A DNA stretch of 64,000 bases, taken from NCBI GenBank assembly GCA_965217115.1, contig OZ244239.1:544001-608000 (forward strand), read 5' to 3'. Source of the DNA: Bdellovibrionales bacterium. Its GTDB lineage: Bacteria; Bdellovibrionota; Bdellovibrionia; Bdellovibrionales; CAYMLA01. Position numbers: made by a program. Shown here piece by piece: positions 15,001 through 21,000 of the stretch (position 1 is the first letter of the stretch; every line of letters begins with the position of its first letter).

Positions 15001-18000
15001 TTGCACGTACTAATCGCCACCAGGAACCTCCTCTTTTACTTGCAAGCACAGGCGAAGCTTATTCTTAGCTCGATACATAAGCACCCCTAAGTGAGTGTCT
15101 GTAATATCTAGGATCTTACAGATTTCTTCACTCGGCTCTCCCTCAACCTCTCTGAGAACAAAAACCATTCGCTGCTTGTCTGGTAAAGCCTGTAAACACT
15201 CCTCCAAGGCCACCCCTGTCTGTGCTATCTCCATAAATCTCTGGGGGCTTAACGGAGCCTTTTTCCAATGCCCCGTTTGATCAAAACCACTCTCTATTAT
15301 TTCATCAATCTTTTCATCTAGAAAATAACGTTGCTCTTTTCGACGGTGCTCTCTTACCTTATTGTAAAGAATCCCCATTAAATAAGTCTTAACATGGGAT
15401 CTACCCTCAAAGCTGTCTATTTTTTCAAAAAAAGTGACCCATGTTATCTGCACCAACTCATAGGCTCGATCCTCATTAAGCCCCATGCCCATCGCCGTTC
15501 GGAAAAACAGCGTGGTGTAGGCCCTCACTAAATCCTCAATAGCACCCGAGTTTTTCTGTTTGAGAAGCTCTAGAAAATCCTCAGTAGCAAATTTCTGTAG
15601 AAGCACTGATCTTGCCTAACTTAGGGGTTACGTGAATTAATAGTGAATAAGTGGTAGTAGAGAAAATATAATTCTTTAAAAGTAGCCATCAAAGATTTAG
15701 CTAACGCCTCTCTCTGTGCTTTGAGATCCTTTTCACTTATTCCTCGGAATTTTTTTAACTCTCTTTCAATAGTAAACTCTGCACCTTCCAGAACTCCAGG
15801 AGCATCAATGTACAATTCATTCAGAGAATGGGAAGTTCCAGCATATTTGCTCAGTTCTTTTTGAATTTTTGCTGCCGAATGTCCTTGTTCCCAAATATAG
15901 TTTTCCTCATTCTGACCAAACCACAACCAAGAAGTTTTCGCCTGCTTTTGCAACCAATCATTAATCTGTAAAGACAACGCCTTCTTATTAGACTTCATCC
16001 CTTTTATAAATGAATTCATTGCTAGAACCTTATTATTCATATCAAACCCTGCCCAGATTTTATAGGTCTGATCATTAAAATCATACAACCGGCGTACCCG
16101 AAATCCAAATCTCGGAGAATGTCTTATCTTTGGATTCAAAGATTTTAATTGGTTTAAGACGATGTCATTATAAAAAGCCTCACTAATTTTTTTACCATCT
16201 TGAACATGGGGTTCACTATATATAACTGCAAAAGGTCGATAGTACTTTTCATTAAGTTTTTGTAAAACTTCTTTGCTTAAACCATCAAGCCACACAGTAG
16301 GTTCAGACATAATGTTAGCCTCACACGATAGTGATTAATATTATTTTCACTCATAAACAGCTCTATTCAATAGATAATACTACACAAAATTGGGGCTGTT
16401 GCCAAGCGATGACCTTCTTCATTGCTCGACCTCAGCTCTCAATTTAACCTCCAGCCAAAGGTCTTGTCTCTACAAAAAGGGGTGCTTAATATAGATATGA
16501 GCCTTTTTATCACAATCACCTGGGGGAATAAACCATGCTCCAAACGACAGTCTTCAATATGTTTTTTTCTGAAAATAGAGCTGATGGCAAACTCAGCTAG
16601 TTTTTAAAAATTTTAACCGTGTAATTATTTCCAAAGCAAGTGCTCACATTGATTATTTTCATAAAAGCTGGTATTATTCAAAAAAAAAAGTTATGGGCCT
16701 GAGCTTATAGCTAAAACTAAACCCTTAGGAGACCGTTATGTTAAAACAATCTATAAAACTTGTTATGGGACTTATGTTCATTTCATTAAGCATCACACCT
16801 GCTTATGGTGCCTACGATGATGTCAATGGAGATCTAAGCACGCTAACAAAGACTTTGGAAAGTGATGAGGCTAGAGCTGAAATTCAAAGCCAATGTGAGG
16901 CAATAAAGAAAGTTTCTAAAACAGGAATTTACGCTGCTTCAGTGACTAATCTTTTAGACGTATGGAAGTTTGATCTTGTTATGTCTTATCCAGCAGGAGC
17001 CATTTTGACTGTGCTTGCTCTGTGGTTAGTAGCTAATGCTGAGTGCGATTCTCCTCTGAATCTATCTAATATTTTTCCCGATGGTTTTTTTGACGAAGAC
17101 GTTGATGACGTTGTCTTCTTTGAAAAAAGAAATGGTGGTTCAATTTAGAATTTTTGATACAGAAGACACTCGGCTTGTAACTCAGCCTTACATACAAAAA
17201 CAATAGCTTTTCAATTAAAAAAAGAACCCCTAGCGGTTCTTTTTTTTTGCCTTCCTTAATTAAACACCAAGCCCGAGTCGGTTTTCCAACCATGGGGGCA
17301 TCAATGGAAGGGCTAGAATATCGATTAAAACATCCTCAAGTGGTTAACAAACAGGTAAAACTTTACAAGTCGCCTCTTTGATCGATTTCACCTCACGTGA
17401 AACTCTCCTGAGAACCTCTTCAGCAAAAGATTTTTCTTCCACCTTGAAATCCTCCAAAGACACCGTCTCAACTGGAGTTCCTGTATTTGAAACATTCACC
17501 GCAAAATGAATCAACAAAGAGTTCACGCTTCGAGTTGCTATACTAATACTGTGCTTACCCTTATCAACAAAAACATCGTCACCCTCCCTCGATAATCCAG
17601 AAGTTAGCCCAGCCTCCGAAGACAAGTCTCGCAAAACATCCATAACAATAGATGCCATTAATCTCTGCAGAACCACCCCTGAGAAAAGTTCTCGATCAAA
17701 TAACTCTAAAATAAAATGAACCATACGCCCACCACAAATCTGAGCACCTGCTAAACGATCTTCTCCATCCACCATGTGCTCTAAATCCACATCGCACGGA
17801 CCTACCCACGACAAAATAGAATCACCCAGCACACCATATTCAAGATAGGCATACAAAGTTCGCAACTGACTGCCATCATACTTAAATGATTTTTTTAAAA
17901 ATAATGTCTTCATTGAAAATCTCCCTTAACTCCAATCTCTTGCAAGGCTCGCCTATCGCGCTGACAGCTTTCACATTTTCCACACCATTTATGACCGTTA

Positions 18001-21000
18001 TGATAACAAGGCCACATTTGAGAAAAATCCACATTCAATGTCTTACCCAAACGAGCAATCTCAGGTTTTGTCATCTCTGTTGTAAAACATTTCGTCTTCA
18101 CCTGATTCGCCGTGGAAAAAGAAAAACTCACATCAAGCGCCTGTAAATAATCCTGGCTATTATCCGGAAAAGTCTGCGCTTCCTCCAAATTAAAACCAGG
18201 GATCACATATTCAGCGCCTAAGCCCTCAGCAAAACCCGCTGCAATATTTAGAAAAATCCCATTGCGATTAGGAACCCAAACTGCTTTTGCTGTCTCTATA
18301 GAGGCTTCCTCTCCATCAATATCAACTCTATCACCCACTGGAATTTCTTGGGACAAATTAATTAAACTCGTTTCAGTAAAATCCCTAAACCAAGTCAAAT
18401 CTATCAAACGATGTTTAAGTCCCAACTGACGACAGAATTCTGCCGATGCTGTATTTTCTCCCGTAAACGCTCTTTGCCCATAATTAAAGGTCAGAGCCAG
18501 TACCACATCAAGCTCTCTGTCAGCGGCAAATAGGTTCACTGTCGAATCCAGGCCTCCTGATAAAAGAACAACCCCTTTACTTCTCTCCACTGCTGTTTTC
18601 ACCGCTGTTCTTACTGCCCTCATCCGGCGTCATTTTTTTCTCTATATTCTCCAAGACTTTCTTACCCGTGCGTTTCACAATCTCTTTGCCACCCTCCACA
18701 ATATCACCTGTCTCATCAAGCAGCCCTTGAACCTTCTGCGCTCTTTTCAAAATGCCCATGGCGATCTTCTGTAGGGTCTCATCATTCTCTAGCTTTTCAC
18801 TGAGCTTTTCACTGAGCTTCCCACTGACTTTCTCCATCTGCTTATCGAGTTTTTTCCCCAAGTCTGTCTCTTGGAATTTCTCTGTTTTTTCCTTTAAAGA
18901 TTTTTTTATCTTTTTTTTCAAATCATCCATGCACTGTCACCTCTTTCAATGAGCCTGAATAAGTCATATTCGACTTATTCTTTTTACGAACATCCTTTAA
19001 AAGCAGTTGCAAACTCTTTCGGCCTGCAAAATAATTCCATTGTGGCTCAGCCAAAACATCCAATTCAAGCCCTTCAACCAAACCTTTCTCAAAAATAACA
19101 TGCCCCTTATCTGGATAAAACCACAAAGTATCCAGAGAATACCCACTGCGATCTTTAATTTTTAACTTCAAATGACCACCGTTTAATTCGCGCACACTCA
19201 CCACTGTTAGCCCATTAAAACAAAAAACAGGGGTTTCAAATGCCACTCCAAATGGCCCCAAGGCTTCGTACCACTTCATAAAACGAGGAGTCAAATCACT
19301 CAAGTCCATTATTCCATCAAAATGAATCACTGCCTCTCTAGCTCCAACCTTAACACTATCAGCCAAGCTTTTGTTCAATAACTCTACAAACAAACCTTCT
19401 TGCTCTTTTTTTAAGGAAAATCCACTGGCCCCAGCATGACCTCCGAAATGCATCAAACTCTCTTTACATTTTTCCAAAATTTCAACTAGATTAAATCCTG
19501 AATTGTCATCTGGAATACGGGCACTTCCCGTGATCACTCCCTCCCCGTTGCAATTTCCAACAAAAGCAGGGACACCATATTTCTGCGATAACCTTGTCGC
19601 CACTAAGCCCACCACTCCCTTGTGATACTCCTCCGAGTAAACCCACACAAAAGAACTCAGATCTTGTTTATCAATACGGCTTAATGCATCCTGTTCAGCT
19701 TCTTTCTGTAACTTCACACGTAACTCATTTTTTTCTAAAACATCTTTGATCAGTTTTTTAGCTTCTTCATCTGTCTCTGCTAAAAAAACATCAAGAGGTA
19801 AAACACCCATTTCCATTCGACTCAAAGCATTTAATTTTGGTGAAAATCGAATGGCCACATCAGCTCCAGTCAACGCTCGACCTGATAAACCCAATTCCTT
19901 AAGAAGAATCTTTAATCCCGATCTATCCGTCTTGGCCAACTCTATAATACCATGCTTCACCAAGACACGATTCTCATCTACCAGTGGAACCATATCCGTC
20001 AGGGTTGCAATAGCAAATAAATCTAGCAACTCCTTAGGCTCAAAATGAGTCTCTAGCAATTTCAACTTCTGAAACCTATTACGCAAAGCTAGAATAAGAA
20101 AAAATGCCACCCCTGTTCCACAGAGATGACCCAAACCTGATTCACAATCAGGCCTGTTCGGATTCACCACCGCCACAGCATCAGGAAGTAAAATATCACG
20201 CCGATTTGTATCACTTGTTTTGGGCAAATGATGATCCGTCACAATCACATCAACTCCTAAAGCCTTTGCCTTAGAAACTGTTTCTATATTTGTAATTCCC
20301 ACGTCCACCGTAAGAATCAAGCTCACGCCCTCTCTCTTCAACTTCTCAACAGCATGAAAATGAAACCCATATCCCTCAGACAAACGCTTAGGTTGATAGT
20401 GTTGTAGATTTTTAAACCCTAACAGGGACAAGCCCTGTAACAGTAGAACCACTCCTGGAGTTCCATCCAAATCGAAATCTCCATAAATTCCTATTTTTTC
20501 ACCGTTTTCATAGGCCAGAAGCAATCGCGCCACCGCTTTGTCCATGTCTTTCATCAAGAACGGACTTCGCATATTCGATAACGTGGGAGAGAGCCAATTT
20601 TGAATATCAACCTCATCACAAATACCACGATTAGAGAGTATTTGGCGAATGGGGTCTGGGATTTTTAATTTAGACTTCGAAGCATTTAAGCCCGAAGAAG
20701 ACCCTTCCTTGAATTTCTGACTCTCCTCCCTAGAAATCCATGTGGTCTTCTTCACTTAACTTAAGCCGCTATTTTTTTACTAGAGAATTTATCCAGCAAC
20801 ATCATCACAGGGGCGGCCACATATATTGAAGAATAGGTTCCCACGATAATACCAATACCCAAAGTAAAAGCAAAATCAGAAATCACTCCACCTGCAATAA
20901 AATACAGCGCTACCGTTGCCAACAAGGTCGTCAATGAGGTCAAAATCGTGCGCCCTAAAACGTCGTTGATCGATCGATTGACGATAACAGATAACAATGT

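Follow-up and report, generated by a model that had tools for sequence, protein, structure and literature searches.

DUF366, a protein of the biotin/lipoate-ligase fold, accompanies a variant QueC and probably works with it in preQ0 synthesis

What does a DUF366 protein do beside QueC? The question is raised by one locus in the window, the whole stretch of 64,000 nucleotides of Bdellovibrionales DNA that we analyzed, in which a DUF366 gene overlaps queC. A first-pass annotation had proposed that DUF366 is a ligase or transferase of 7-deazaguanine metabolism with a LipB/LplA-like active site. The features of the locus are as follows.

17344-17913, minus strand: DUF366 gene, an ORF of 189 aa for a protein of predicted BPL/LplA fold (basis: ORF, Pfam and AlphaFold2).
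17910-18623, minus strand: queC of the F-type subtype, an ORF of 237 aa (basis: Pfam, NCBIfam and alignment).
17910-17913, minus strand: ATGA overlap, in which the queC stop TGA shares bases with the DUF366 start ATG (read directly).
17920-17925, minus strand: GGGAGA, a Shine-Dalgarno-like sequence near the end of the queC reading frame and within it, 6 nt upstream of the DUF366 ATG (read directly).
17213-17250, no strand assigned: hairpin with an A-tract, a GAACC/GGTTC stem and a T-tract, between convergent genes and about 100 nt past the DUF366 stop.
23913-24968, minus strand: tgt, tRNA-guanine transglycosylase, found by genome search upstream of queC-DUF366 on the same strand.

The 189-aa ORF matches PF04017 (DUF366) with an E-value of 3.9e-57 and 193.2 bits (cut-off 29.9), and residues 1-185 cover profile positions 1-183 of 184, making the protein a full-length member of this Pfam family; none of the NCBIfam models matched it. 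The 237-aa queC product matches PF06508 (E 2.2e-52) and TIGR00364 (172 bits, cut-off 150). Both genes lie in the same-strand row tgt-secD-secF-recJ-117-aa ORF-queC-DUF366, where secD, secF and recJ are named from their translations and from Pfam matches on the corresponding genes of related loci. Translational coupling had been claimed from a 4-nt overlap. The ATGA and the GGGAGA before it agree with this, and at the level of sequence the overlap is the arrangement of translational coupling; queC and DUF366 would be translated from one message. The hairpin is probably a two-way terminator closing the queC-DUF366 operon. It forms part of the predicted RNA fold of a 141-nt stretch (z-score of the whole stretch -2.65), and it is not among the sites listed by a terminator consensus scan. 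A search of this genome found a single real QueC together with QueF and Tgt, the latter two as the first-pass annotation had stated; therefore, the QueC-DUF366 pair must supply free preQ0.

We compared an AlphaFold2 model of DUF366 (pLDDT 97.5, pTM 0.92) with 48,161 chains using VIA-align. The best match was 2DDZ (Z 29.0, rmsd 1.2 Å over 183 residues), a hypothetical P. horikoshii protein of 190 aa that was deposited without a function. The two proteins are members of one family (37% identity, phmmer E 1.2e-28), and nothing separates them. We take 2DDZ to be PH0223. The available part of PMC1414084 has PH0223 among its listed self-interacting proteins. After 2DDZ came 18 chains of BPL (P. horikoshii 1wnl, Aquifex 2eay), LplA and LipB, with Z 9.5-13.2 over 147-169 aligned residues, and the next fold had Z 7.8; Foldseek likewise returned BPL/LplA at E about 1e-7. 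As modeled, then, the fold of DUF366 is that of the BPL/LplA/LipB catalytic module, reproducing the earlier assignment. DUF366 shares just 8-19% identity with these enzymes, and a Pfam scan (E <= 0.01) matched PF04017 alone, with no hit to BPL_LplA_LipB or LplA-B_cat. It also has no C-terminal cap domain.

The predicted strand K-x-S-I-S-I-A was found as K120-H-S-I-S-I-A126, and its Lys is indeed invariant (135/135 family representatives), with D113 kept in 129 of the 135. The DUF366 profile R-x-G-D-D-L-Y-x4-K-L-S-v-S-i-A...G-l-N aligns with K-W-P-N-D-V-Y-x4-K-K-V-S-G...G-I-N of the BPL 2eay at an E-value of 0.024, a marginal sequence similarity. In this alignment K120 and D113 fall on the Lys and Asp of the 2eay motif, and the Asp-x6-Lys strand pair and following G-x-N match BPL WPND...K...GIGIN. 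Among PDB entries of P. horikoshii BPL, titles name the mutants D104A and K111A. In BPL, LplA and LipB, a conserved Lys contacts the acyl-adenylate from the strand that follows the (N/D)D hairpin, and the conserved face of DUF366 carries an Asp-Lys-Asn strand motif of this type. Near-invariant residues are Y12, D49, D52, H66, E70, Q83, R84, R109, D113, S124, S132, H136, N140, E174 and K184; the N-terminus shows no conservation in the family alignment. Adenylating BPL and LplA have substrate/nucleotide loops of the GRGRxGR or RRxxGGG type. No such Gly/Arg-rich loop appears among the DUF366 columns conserved at 70% or more, and the region where it is expected is variable, which makes ATP use by DUF366 doubtful.

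The Cys described as invariant is not: position 40 is Cys in 106 of the 135 representatives and is replaced in 25 (Ala in 22, Val in 3). This bears on the earlier version of the mechanism: DUF366 would be a ligase or transferase of LipB/LplA type whose Cys, helped by the Lys, becomes covalently linked to an intermediate, the target being the carboxylate or nitrile group of what QueC uses or makes. Such a scheme would agree with the fold, with K120 in the family's lysine strand and with the presence of Cys40 here and in most representatives, but a catalytic nucleophile is not expected to be lost in this way. DUF366 has no conserved LipB-type Cys. Moreover, Cys40 precedes the Lys strand, whereas the catalytic Cys of LipB comes after it, and when DUF366 was aligned by hhalign with the LipB and the LplA encoded in this genome, the probabilities were 1.2% and 0.2%, respectively. 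We consider covalent catalysis through Cys40 quite improbable.

The genomic setting ties DUF366 to QueC. We drew 80 DUF366 loci by motif, 27 of them from one order-level group, and 77 of the 80 have 700 bp or more of upstream sequence. In 55/77 the next gene upstream is a same-strand QueC, and 16/77 have no deazaguanine gene nearby. QueE directly follows DUF366 in 23/80, and Bacillota have complete queD-queC-DUF366-queE-folE rows. The QueC-DUF366 loci come from Melainabacteria, Bdellovibrionota, Bacillota, Methanosarcinales, Bacteroidota, Nitrospira, Pseudomonadota, Krumholzibacteriia, Coatesbacteria and Spirochaetota, about ten phyla in both domains. The claim that queC directly precedes DUF366 on the same strand held in a sample of 101 genomes of the phylum, each at least 90% complete (53 of the 54 with DUF366). 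Three natural QueC-DUF366 fusions were found: P0121 (408 aa), P0246 (438 aa) and a 496-aa open frame in genome G104. No biotinyl or lipoyl acceptor protein was found among the scanned neighbor genes; unlike BPL, LplA and LipB, DUF366 has a PP-loop nucleobase enzyme as its genomic partner.

This partner is itself a distinct QueC subtype, which the first-pass annotation had overlooked. According to the available part of PMC13329287, canonical (cluster 1) QueC is marked by SGGxDS, VPxRN, C(x)8CxxCxxC with Y189, YPDC and YxQxHxxE. The QueC of this locus has the first three, as SGGLDS (S22-S27), WVPNRN (R120) and the zinc motif C206-Y207...C214-x2-C217-x2-C220, and it retains K186. It has no YPDC motif with Tyr131: where canonical QueC has Y131-P-D-C134, it has F152-P-D-N155. 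In the YxQxHxxE region, Y48, Q50 and E56 are kept, the His is gone and there is one extra residue; the His is also absent from 10/20 QueCs of DUF366-free genomes. In F-type QueCs, F-x-D-N replaces Y-P-D-C (F and N in 66/66 sequences). The F-type protein of this locus retains the PP-loop, the zinc site and counterparts of K165 and of Y35, R99 and Y189, the last three being essential in E. coli. It further differs from canonical QueC by E-E for T/x-D, a W before VP and an insertion of 10-12 residues, and it scores only 61-66 bits against solved QueCs. The same source places YPDC at the pocket opening and reports E. coli Y131A as inactive and Y131F as partly active, so Phe need not cripple QueC. 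With QueC itself a variant, the question is no longer what an additional enzyme does next to QueC but whether two proteins together stand in for the canonical one.

Judged from sequence, DUF366 accompanies the F-type almost exclusively, an association that is new here. In the phylum sample, every one of the 54 genomes with DUF366 has an F-type QueC, scoring 195-327 bits against the F-type profile. The 47 genomes that lack DUF366 comprise 42 with at most 174 bits, four with no QueC and one with an F-type gene, which lies at a contig end (base 16). Neither gene occurs in two genomes (G019 and G009) whose families have both elsewhere, and where both states occur within a family (f13), DUF366 and F-type QueC remain coupled. 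Among 61 archaeal genomes, an F-type QueC (at least 258 bits) is present in 22 of the 23 with DUF366, and none of the 38 without it exceeds 190 bits; the two genes are far apart or on separate contigs in 6/23, and their order is reversed in 4/23. Pooled, the samples give F-type QueC in 76/77 genomes with DUF366 and 1/85 without. Ten further DUF366 genomes without an adjacent QueC comprised eight with a full F-type QueC elsewhere, one with a half-length copy at a contig end and one with none. At the Tyr131 and Cys134 positions, F and N occur in 56/56 QueCs adjoining DUF366 and in 10/12 distant ones from DUF366-bearing genomes, and Tyr occupies the former position in 20/20 QueCs of DUF366-free genomes. 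DUF366 is not strictly tied to the F-type, since Heliophilum and one archaeon (G122) carry it with a canonical YPDC protein as their sole QueC. The QueC of three DUF366-free archaea is intermediate, with Y-P-D-N, so most of the F-type signature can exist alone.

In a tree, the 66 F-type QueCs all lie on one side of one branch. Much of the synteny is therefore inherited, and the co-occurrence reflects a single pair kept together over a long time rather than repeated separate acquisitions. This single clade, and the 27 of 80 loci from one order-level group, would suit genes that are neighbors by descent, or a hitch-hiking mobile pair, with no functional link. We regard such an accident as very improbable: the co-occurrence holds when the genes are far apart, their order is reversed in the four archaea, two genomes lack both, and fusions exist.

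Because DUF366 accompanies one QueC subtype across bacteria, archaea and a phage, the two proteins probably work as a pair making preQ0, the precursor of the queuosine and archaeosine tRNA bases. Our main reading, to which we give about even odds (roughly 0.5) from these sequence comparisons, is that preQ0 is made here by an alternative synthase of two proteins, with DUF366 as its dedicated second component. Its active face would consist of Asp113, Lys120 and Asn140, with His66, Glu70, Ser122/124 and His136, on the BPL-type β-sheet; in biotin and lipoate ligases the same face holds the acyl-adenylate. This face may bind 7-carboxy-7-deazaguanine (CDG) by its carboxylate, or the CDG adenylate. 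Next to QueC or in contact with it, DUF366 would then perform, or help with, the conversion of the carboxylate CDG into the amide ADG, which is the first half-reaction. The PP-loop enzyme QueC, with F-x-D-N at the mouth of its substrate pocket, would finish by dehydrating the amide to the nitrile, preQ0. The QueC-DUF366 contact, the ligand, the choice of half-reaction and any ATP use by DUF366 are parts that we infer. AsnA, a class II aaRS-like enzyme, amidates a carboxylate using ammonia. By analogy with its action on aspartate, DUF366 might activate and amidate CDG alone, leaving an F-type QueC without Tyr131 and Cys134 only to dehydrate ADG to preQ0; we regard this full division of labor as a tentative possibility. 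Of the original proposal, the fold stands, and so does the tie to QueC and preQ0, now on stronger evidence (synteny across phyla, unlinked co-occurrence, joint absence and fusions), the LipB-like Cys/Lys pair does not, and the ligase/transferase chemistry is a guess. Canonical QueC, as in E. coli (b0444) and B. subtilis (3BL5), takes CDG through ADG to preQ0 as a single protein and needs no partner. Under the full division of labor, DUF366 would be the first BPL/LplA-fold enzyme to act on a free nucleobase rather than a protein lysine, and about 1% of bacteria, several percent of archaea (figures of the first-pass annotation) and some phages would use five preQ0 enzymes, not four. We found nothing on a DUF366-QueC link in the published literature.

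DUF366 might instead serve 7-deazaguanine metabolism while being dispensable for preQ0, either carrying CDG, ADG or poorly soluble preQ0 between QueE, QueC and QueF/Tgt, or in editing or salvage, for example of stray CDG-adenylate. The loci with DUF366 between queC and queE, its position beside queE alone in Heliophilum and beside arcTGT and ArcS in two loci (L050, L053), and a polar conserved pocket suited to a small polar ligand all fit such a role, as does the sufficiency of the four known enzymes in organisms without DUF366. A dispensable helper is unlikely, however, to track one QueC subtype so closely or to vanish with it, and we judge this role rather unlikely.

DUF366 could also act in protein modification, either as a BPL-like ligase with QueC or some other protein as its target, or as the acceptor of a deazaguanine, like the partner proteins to which the QueC-family enzymes Cap9 and QatC attach the base. 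To our knowledge, every characterized protein of this fold acts on a lysine of a protein, and K120 is invariant; a lysine-linked amide, on the other hand, cannot dehydrate to a nitrile. Deazaguanylation of proteins by the QueC family is reported in the available parts of 10.1101/2025.04.06.647259 and 10.1101/2025.09.03.674047. The genes studied here lie in preQ0 biosynthetic operons rather than defense islands, the N-terminus of DUF366 is not conserved, and this genome needs free preQ0 from its only QueC, all of which make a protein-modifying role improbable.

An alternative preQ0 synthase of two proteins would have precedents. In the available part of PMC13329287 and in abstracts, Gat-QueC (a glutaminase fused to QueC in Crenarchaeota and phage 9g), Cap9/Cap10 and QatC/QatB are QueC-fold enzymes with an added domain or partner protein. 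What joins QueC in these cases is a glutaminase, a TGT-like enzyme or a protein substrate; none has the BPL fold, unlike DUF366. DUF366 might replace the glutaminase domain of Gat-QueC by supplying or channeling ammonia, a role with which the AsnA reaction agrees. So does the consumption of ammonia by QueC (PMC13329287, available part). DUF366 has no conserved Cys nucleophile, however, which speaks against this role. We know of no amidase with this fold either, and ammonia supply seems highly improbable given a viral contig (L165) on which DUF366 adjoins a Gat-QueC that already has its own glutamine amidotransferase domain (GATase_7 E 1.3e-4) and also carries FPDN.

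The DUF366 gene and its overlapping upstream neighbor queC lie on the minus strand of the window, as follows.

17344-17913, minus strand: DUF366 gene, a 189-aa ORF (PF04017, E 3.9e-57; no NCBIfam model matches)
17910-18623, minus strand: queC, a 237-aa ORF (PF06508, E 2.2e-52; TIGR00364, 172 bits, cut-off 150)
18577-18930, minus strand: Lys/Glu-rich 117-aa ORF sharing 47 nt with the start of queC as annotated

The overlap between queC and DUF366 reads ATGA, and the sequence GGGAGA is found 6 nt 5' of the DUF366 start. About 100 nt 3' of the DUF366 stop, RNA folding revealed a hairpin with an A-tract, a GC stem and a T-tract, which is absent from the output of the consensus scan. 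The 117-aa ORF, recJ, secF, secD and tgt are found upstream of queC on the same strand, and DUF366 is the last gene of this row (17344-24968), which is the E. coli-like tgt-secDF block lengthened by the preQ0 genes. A Pfam search with the 117-aa ORF gave sub-threshold matches only (DUF445, DUF3860), and the actual queC start may be downstream of the annotated one.

The window QueC scored only 61-66 bits against the two solved QueCs. We aligned it with E. coli QueC and compared it to the signature defined by mutagenesis in a survey of the QueC family (PMC13329287). The protein keeps SGGxDS, Y35, Q37, E42, VPxRN with R99, K165, the zinc cysteines and Y189, and departs from the signature by F152-P-D-N155 instead of Y131-P-D-C134, by E-E instead of x-D and by a W ahead of VP. 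According to the survey, the YPDC motif sits where the substrate pocket opens, the Y131A variant is inactive and Y131F is partly active; cluster 1 is handled there as a single canonical group (PMC13329287). We refer to QueCs with F-x-D-N at this position as F-type. A comparison of 88 QueCs showed F and N in all 56 encoded next to DUF366 and in 10 of the 12 whose genomes carry DUF366 elsewhere; the 20 from DUF366-free genomes invariably have Tyr (YPDC in 17, YPDN in 3). The motif His39 was rejected as a subtype marker because it is also absent from many QueCs of DUF366-free genomes. Three archaeal genomes without DUF366 (G156, G136 and G125; loci L155-L157) carry an intermediate QueC with TWVPCRN, EE and Y-P-D-N. 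The window genome has a single real QueC together with QueF and Tgt, and therefore its queuosine synthesis relies on preQ0 from an F-type enzyme.

A quick IQ-TREE analysis of the 88 QueCs, with SH-aLRT support, placed 66/66 F-type sequences on one side of a branch (support 90). Their sisters are the three archaeal YPDN sequences without DUF366 (support 100), and these two groups together are separated from the canonical QueCs (support 97). As far as the tree of these sequences can tell, the QueC-DUF366 pair most likely arose once, so counts of co-occurrence gauge how faithfully the genes have stayed together rather than independent gains. The G156, G136 and G125 enzymes may preserve the condition that preceded the partnership.

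We scored QueCs against an F-type profile in 101 genomes of the phylum, each at least 90% complete. DUF366 is present in 54 of these, all of which have a QueC at 195-327 bits, directly upstream of DUF366 in 53. Among the 47 genomes without DUF366, 42 score at most 174 bits, four have no QueC, and one carries an F-type gene at contig base 16, where a partner would be cut off. Both genes are absent from G019 (100% complete) and G009, which belong to families otherwise carrying both, and in family f13 three genomes have the pair and two have canonical QueC alone. Family f11 lacks DUF366, and six of its genomes (G021, G036, G043, G070, G076 and G097) each carry two canonical-like QueC genes, one at about 150-175 bits and the other at about 92-120 bits; the latter may belong to a different deazaguanine system or to a defence system. 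In a sample of 61 archaeal genomes, 22 of the 23 with DUF366 score at least 258 bits, and none of the 38 without it exceeds 190. The archaeal gene order is queC-DUF366 in 12/23 and reversed in 4/23, and the genes are distant or on separate contigs in 6/23. We also searched 10 further genomes in which DUF366 has no que neighbor: in eight a complete F-type QueC is encoded elsewhere, in another a half-length one lies at the end of a contig, and the tenth has none. The exceptions, with DUF366 and canonical QueC alone, are Heliophilum and the archaeal genome G122.

The flanks of DUF366 were surveyed more widely with a degenerate DNA motif scan (one genome per species), which returned at least 120 stretches; 80 of the matches listed had flanks, 27 of them Melainabacteria-like. 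These flanks were searched in six frames with local QueC, QueE and QueD profiles; the six-frame HMM search replaced ORF calling, in which over-long overlapping frames hid QueC (L018, L020, L047, L076 and L080). QueC is directly upstream of DUF366, with both genes on one strand, in 55 of the 77 listed loci that have room for it, and in no listed locus is it downstream or on the opposite strand. QueE directly follows DUF366 in 23/80 listed loci, and the Bacillota row reads queD-queC-DUF366-queE-folE; 16/77 listed loci have no deazaguanine gene nearby. The QueCs of a Muribaculaceae MAG (L078) and of two Clostridium/Clostridiaceae MAGs (L007 and L019) nest inside the Gastranaerophilales (Melainabacteria) clade of the tree. 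Therefore, these contigs are probably mis-binned and do not count as extra phyla. The two proteins are fused in P0121, P0246 and a 496-aa frame of G104. On a 141-kb viral contig from IMG/VR (L165:4683-6648), DUF366 directly precedes a 487-aa Gat-QueC (GATase_7, E 1.3e-4; QueC, E 9.7e-41) with FPDN in its QueC part. A single-protein search of viral contigs gave no match, and the phage collection gave one, in Microcystis phage MaAM05 (L132, MW495066.1, 274 kb; 110417-122971), with no queC near it. The neighbors there are glyS, mtgA, fabI, engB and gatD-like genes, and this part of the record resembles cellular DNA. DUF366 and F-type QueC form a conserved, translationally coupled and sometimes fused pair within preQ0 operons.

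An exhaustive search of 1.84 billion clusters recovered 538 representative DUF366 clusters at E ≤0.001, whose members are all named "DUF366 family protein" or "hypothetical" at source; a protein atlas search gave no usable match. Across 135 full-length representatives K120 is invariant, and Y12, G14, D49, D52, H66, E70, Q83, R84, R109, G111, D113, S124, A126, S132, H136, N140, P147, E174 and K184 are at least 90% conserved. The first-pass annotation had also described an invariant Cys, but position 40 is occupied by Cys in 106 of the 135, by Ala in 22 and by Val in three; C40 cannot be a universal nucleophile. In the AlphaFold2 model (pLDDT 97.5, pTM 0.92), conserved polar residues occupy alternate positions of strands 60-72, 122-128 and 132-140 and so lie along a single face of the central sheet, which we infer to be the active site in this fold. 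One family member has Clp_N repeats fused N-terminal to a full DUF366 (P0198) and another joins the first half of DUF366 to a guanylate kinase (P0194); either is possibly a gene-calling or assembly artefact.

Compared with 48,161 chains, the model matched 2ddz, the P. horikoshii DUF366 structure, best (Z 29.0), followed by 18 biotin ligase, lipoate ligase and LipB chains (Z 9.5-13.2), another fold (Z 7.8) and then class II tRNA synthetases. Foldseek gave the same result. Structure classifications presumably already assign 2DDZ to the class II aaRS/biotin synthetase superfamily, in which case the fold itself would be no novelty. At the sequence level, the family profile matched the Aquifex biotin protein ligase (BPL) 2eay at E 0.024, aligning K-W-P-N-D-V-Y-x4-K-K-V-S-G...G-I-N of the ligase with R-x-G-D-D-L-Y-x4-K-L-S-v-S-i-A...G-l-N of DUF366. 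PDB titles list D104 and K111 of the P. horikoshii BPL as mutated residues. Alignment by hhalign with LipB and LplA of the window genome gave nothing usable, and a local likeness to LipB (PC...MV..E(D/E)) was dropped because its order is wrong relative to the Lys strand. DUF366 shares with BPL both the acyl-adenylate-binding architecture and the Asp/Lys/Asn floor.

We consider it about as likely as not that preQ0 formation requires DUF366 as a partner. DUF366 could bind the carboxylate end of 7-carboxy-7-deazaguanine (CDG) or the CDG adenylate and perform or assist the carboxylate-to-amide step, and the altered pocket mouth of F-type QueC would reflect work shared with DUF366. A version in which the two half-reactions are split between the two proteins seems rather unlikely. 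Several observations argue against a required or reaction-sharing partner: the two exceptions (Heliophilum and G122), the occurrence of intermediate QueC without a partner, the activity remaining in E. coli Y131F, and the lack of a visible nucleotide loop in DUF366. Prediction of a complex between F-type QueC and DUF366, made without controls, gave an ipSAE of 0.00 in two runs (mark 0.32), which speaks neither for nor against the pairing.

The preQ0 pathway (FolE, QueD, QueE and QueC), which supplies queuosine, archaeosine, phage and bacterial DNA deazaguanines, and antibiotics, is regarded as complete. If a conserved fifth gene is tied to a QueC subtype, pipelines annotate as "QueC" proteins that may not function alone, and attempts to reconstitute or engineer the pathway of methanogens, Bdellovibrio, Melainabacteria or phages may be unsuccessful if DUF366 is left out. 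In that case, the biotin/lipoate-ligase fold would be used beyond protein lipoylation and biotinylation, and 2DDZ has been a solved structure awaiting a function since 2007. Our literature search found nothing relevant on DUF366, PF04017 or, among the papers listed, COG2029, and the matches for 2DDZ were unrelated; PH0223 gave a single table entry. DUF366 is unmentioned in the text of the QueC survey (PMC13329287, 2026), although its neighborhood table S2 might list the family. The proposal can be put to a direct test: complementation of queC in E. coli is an assay in current use (PMC13329287), and genetic tools are available for two carriers of the family, Bdellovibrio bacteriovorus and Methanosarcina acetivorans.

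Other genes also recur beside DUF366. In Gastranaerophilales (L004, L006, L013, L014, L027, L034, L040 and others) the pair sits in a conserved four-gene row, with a HEAT-repeat (PBS lyase-like) protein 5' of queC and a SPOR-domain protein 3' of DUF366. Two loci (L050:2054-5753 and L053:2026-5729) contain a row of DUF366, a 190-aa protein, arcTGT and ArcS (TGT, DUF5591 and PUA). The "Acidiferrales" label of L053 looks doubtful for such an archaeal set of genes. The 190-aa protein has no Pfam match at E ≤1e-6, and an ORF of this length also lies 3' of DUF366 in L009. This gene could be an additional, unrecognised member of the archaeosine pathway.
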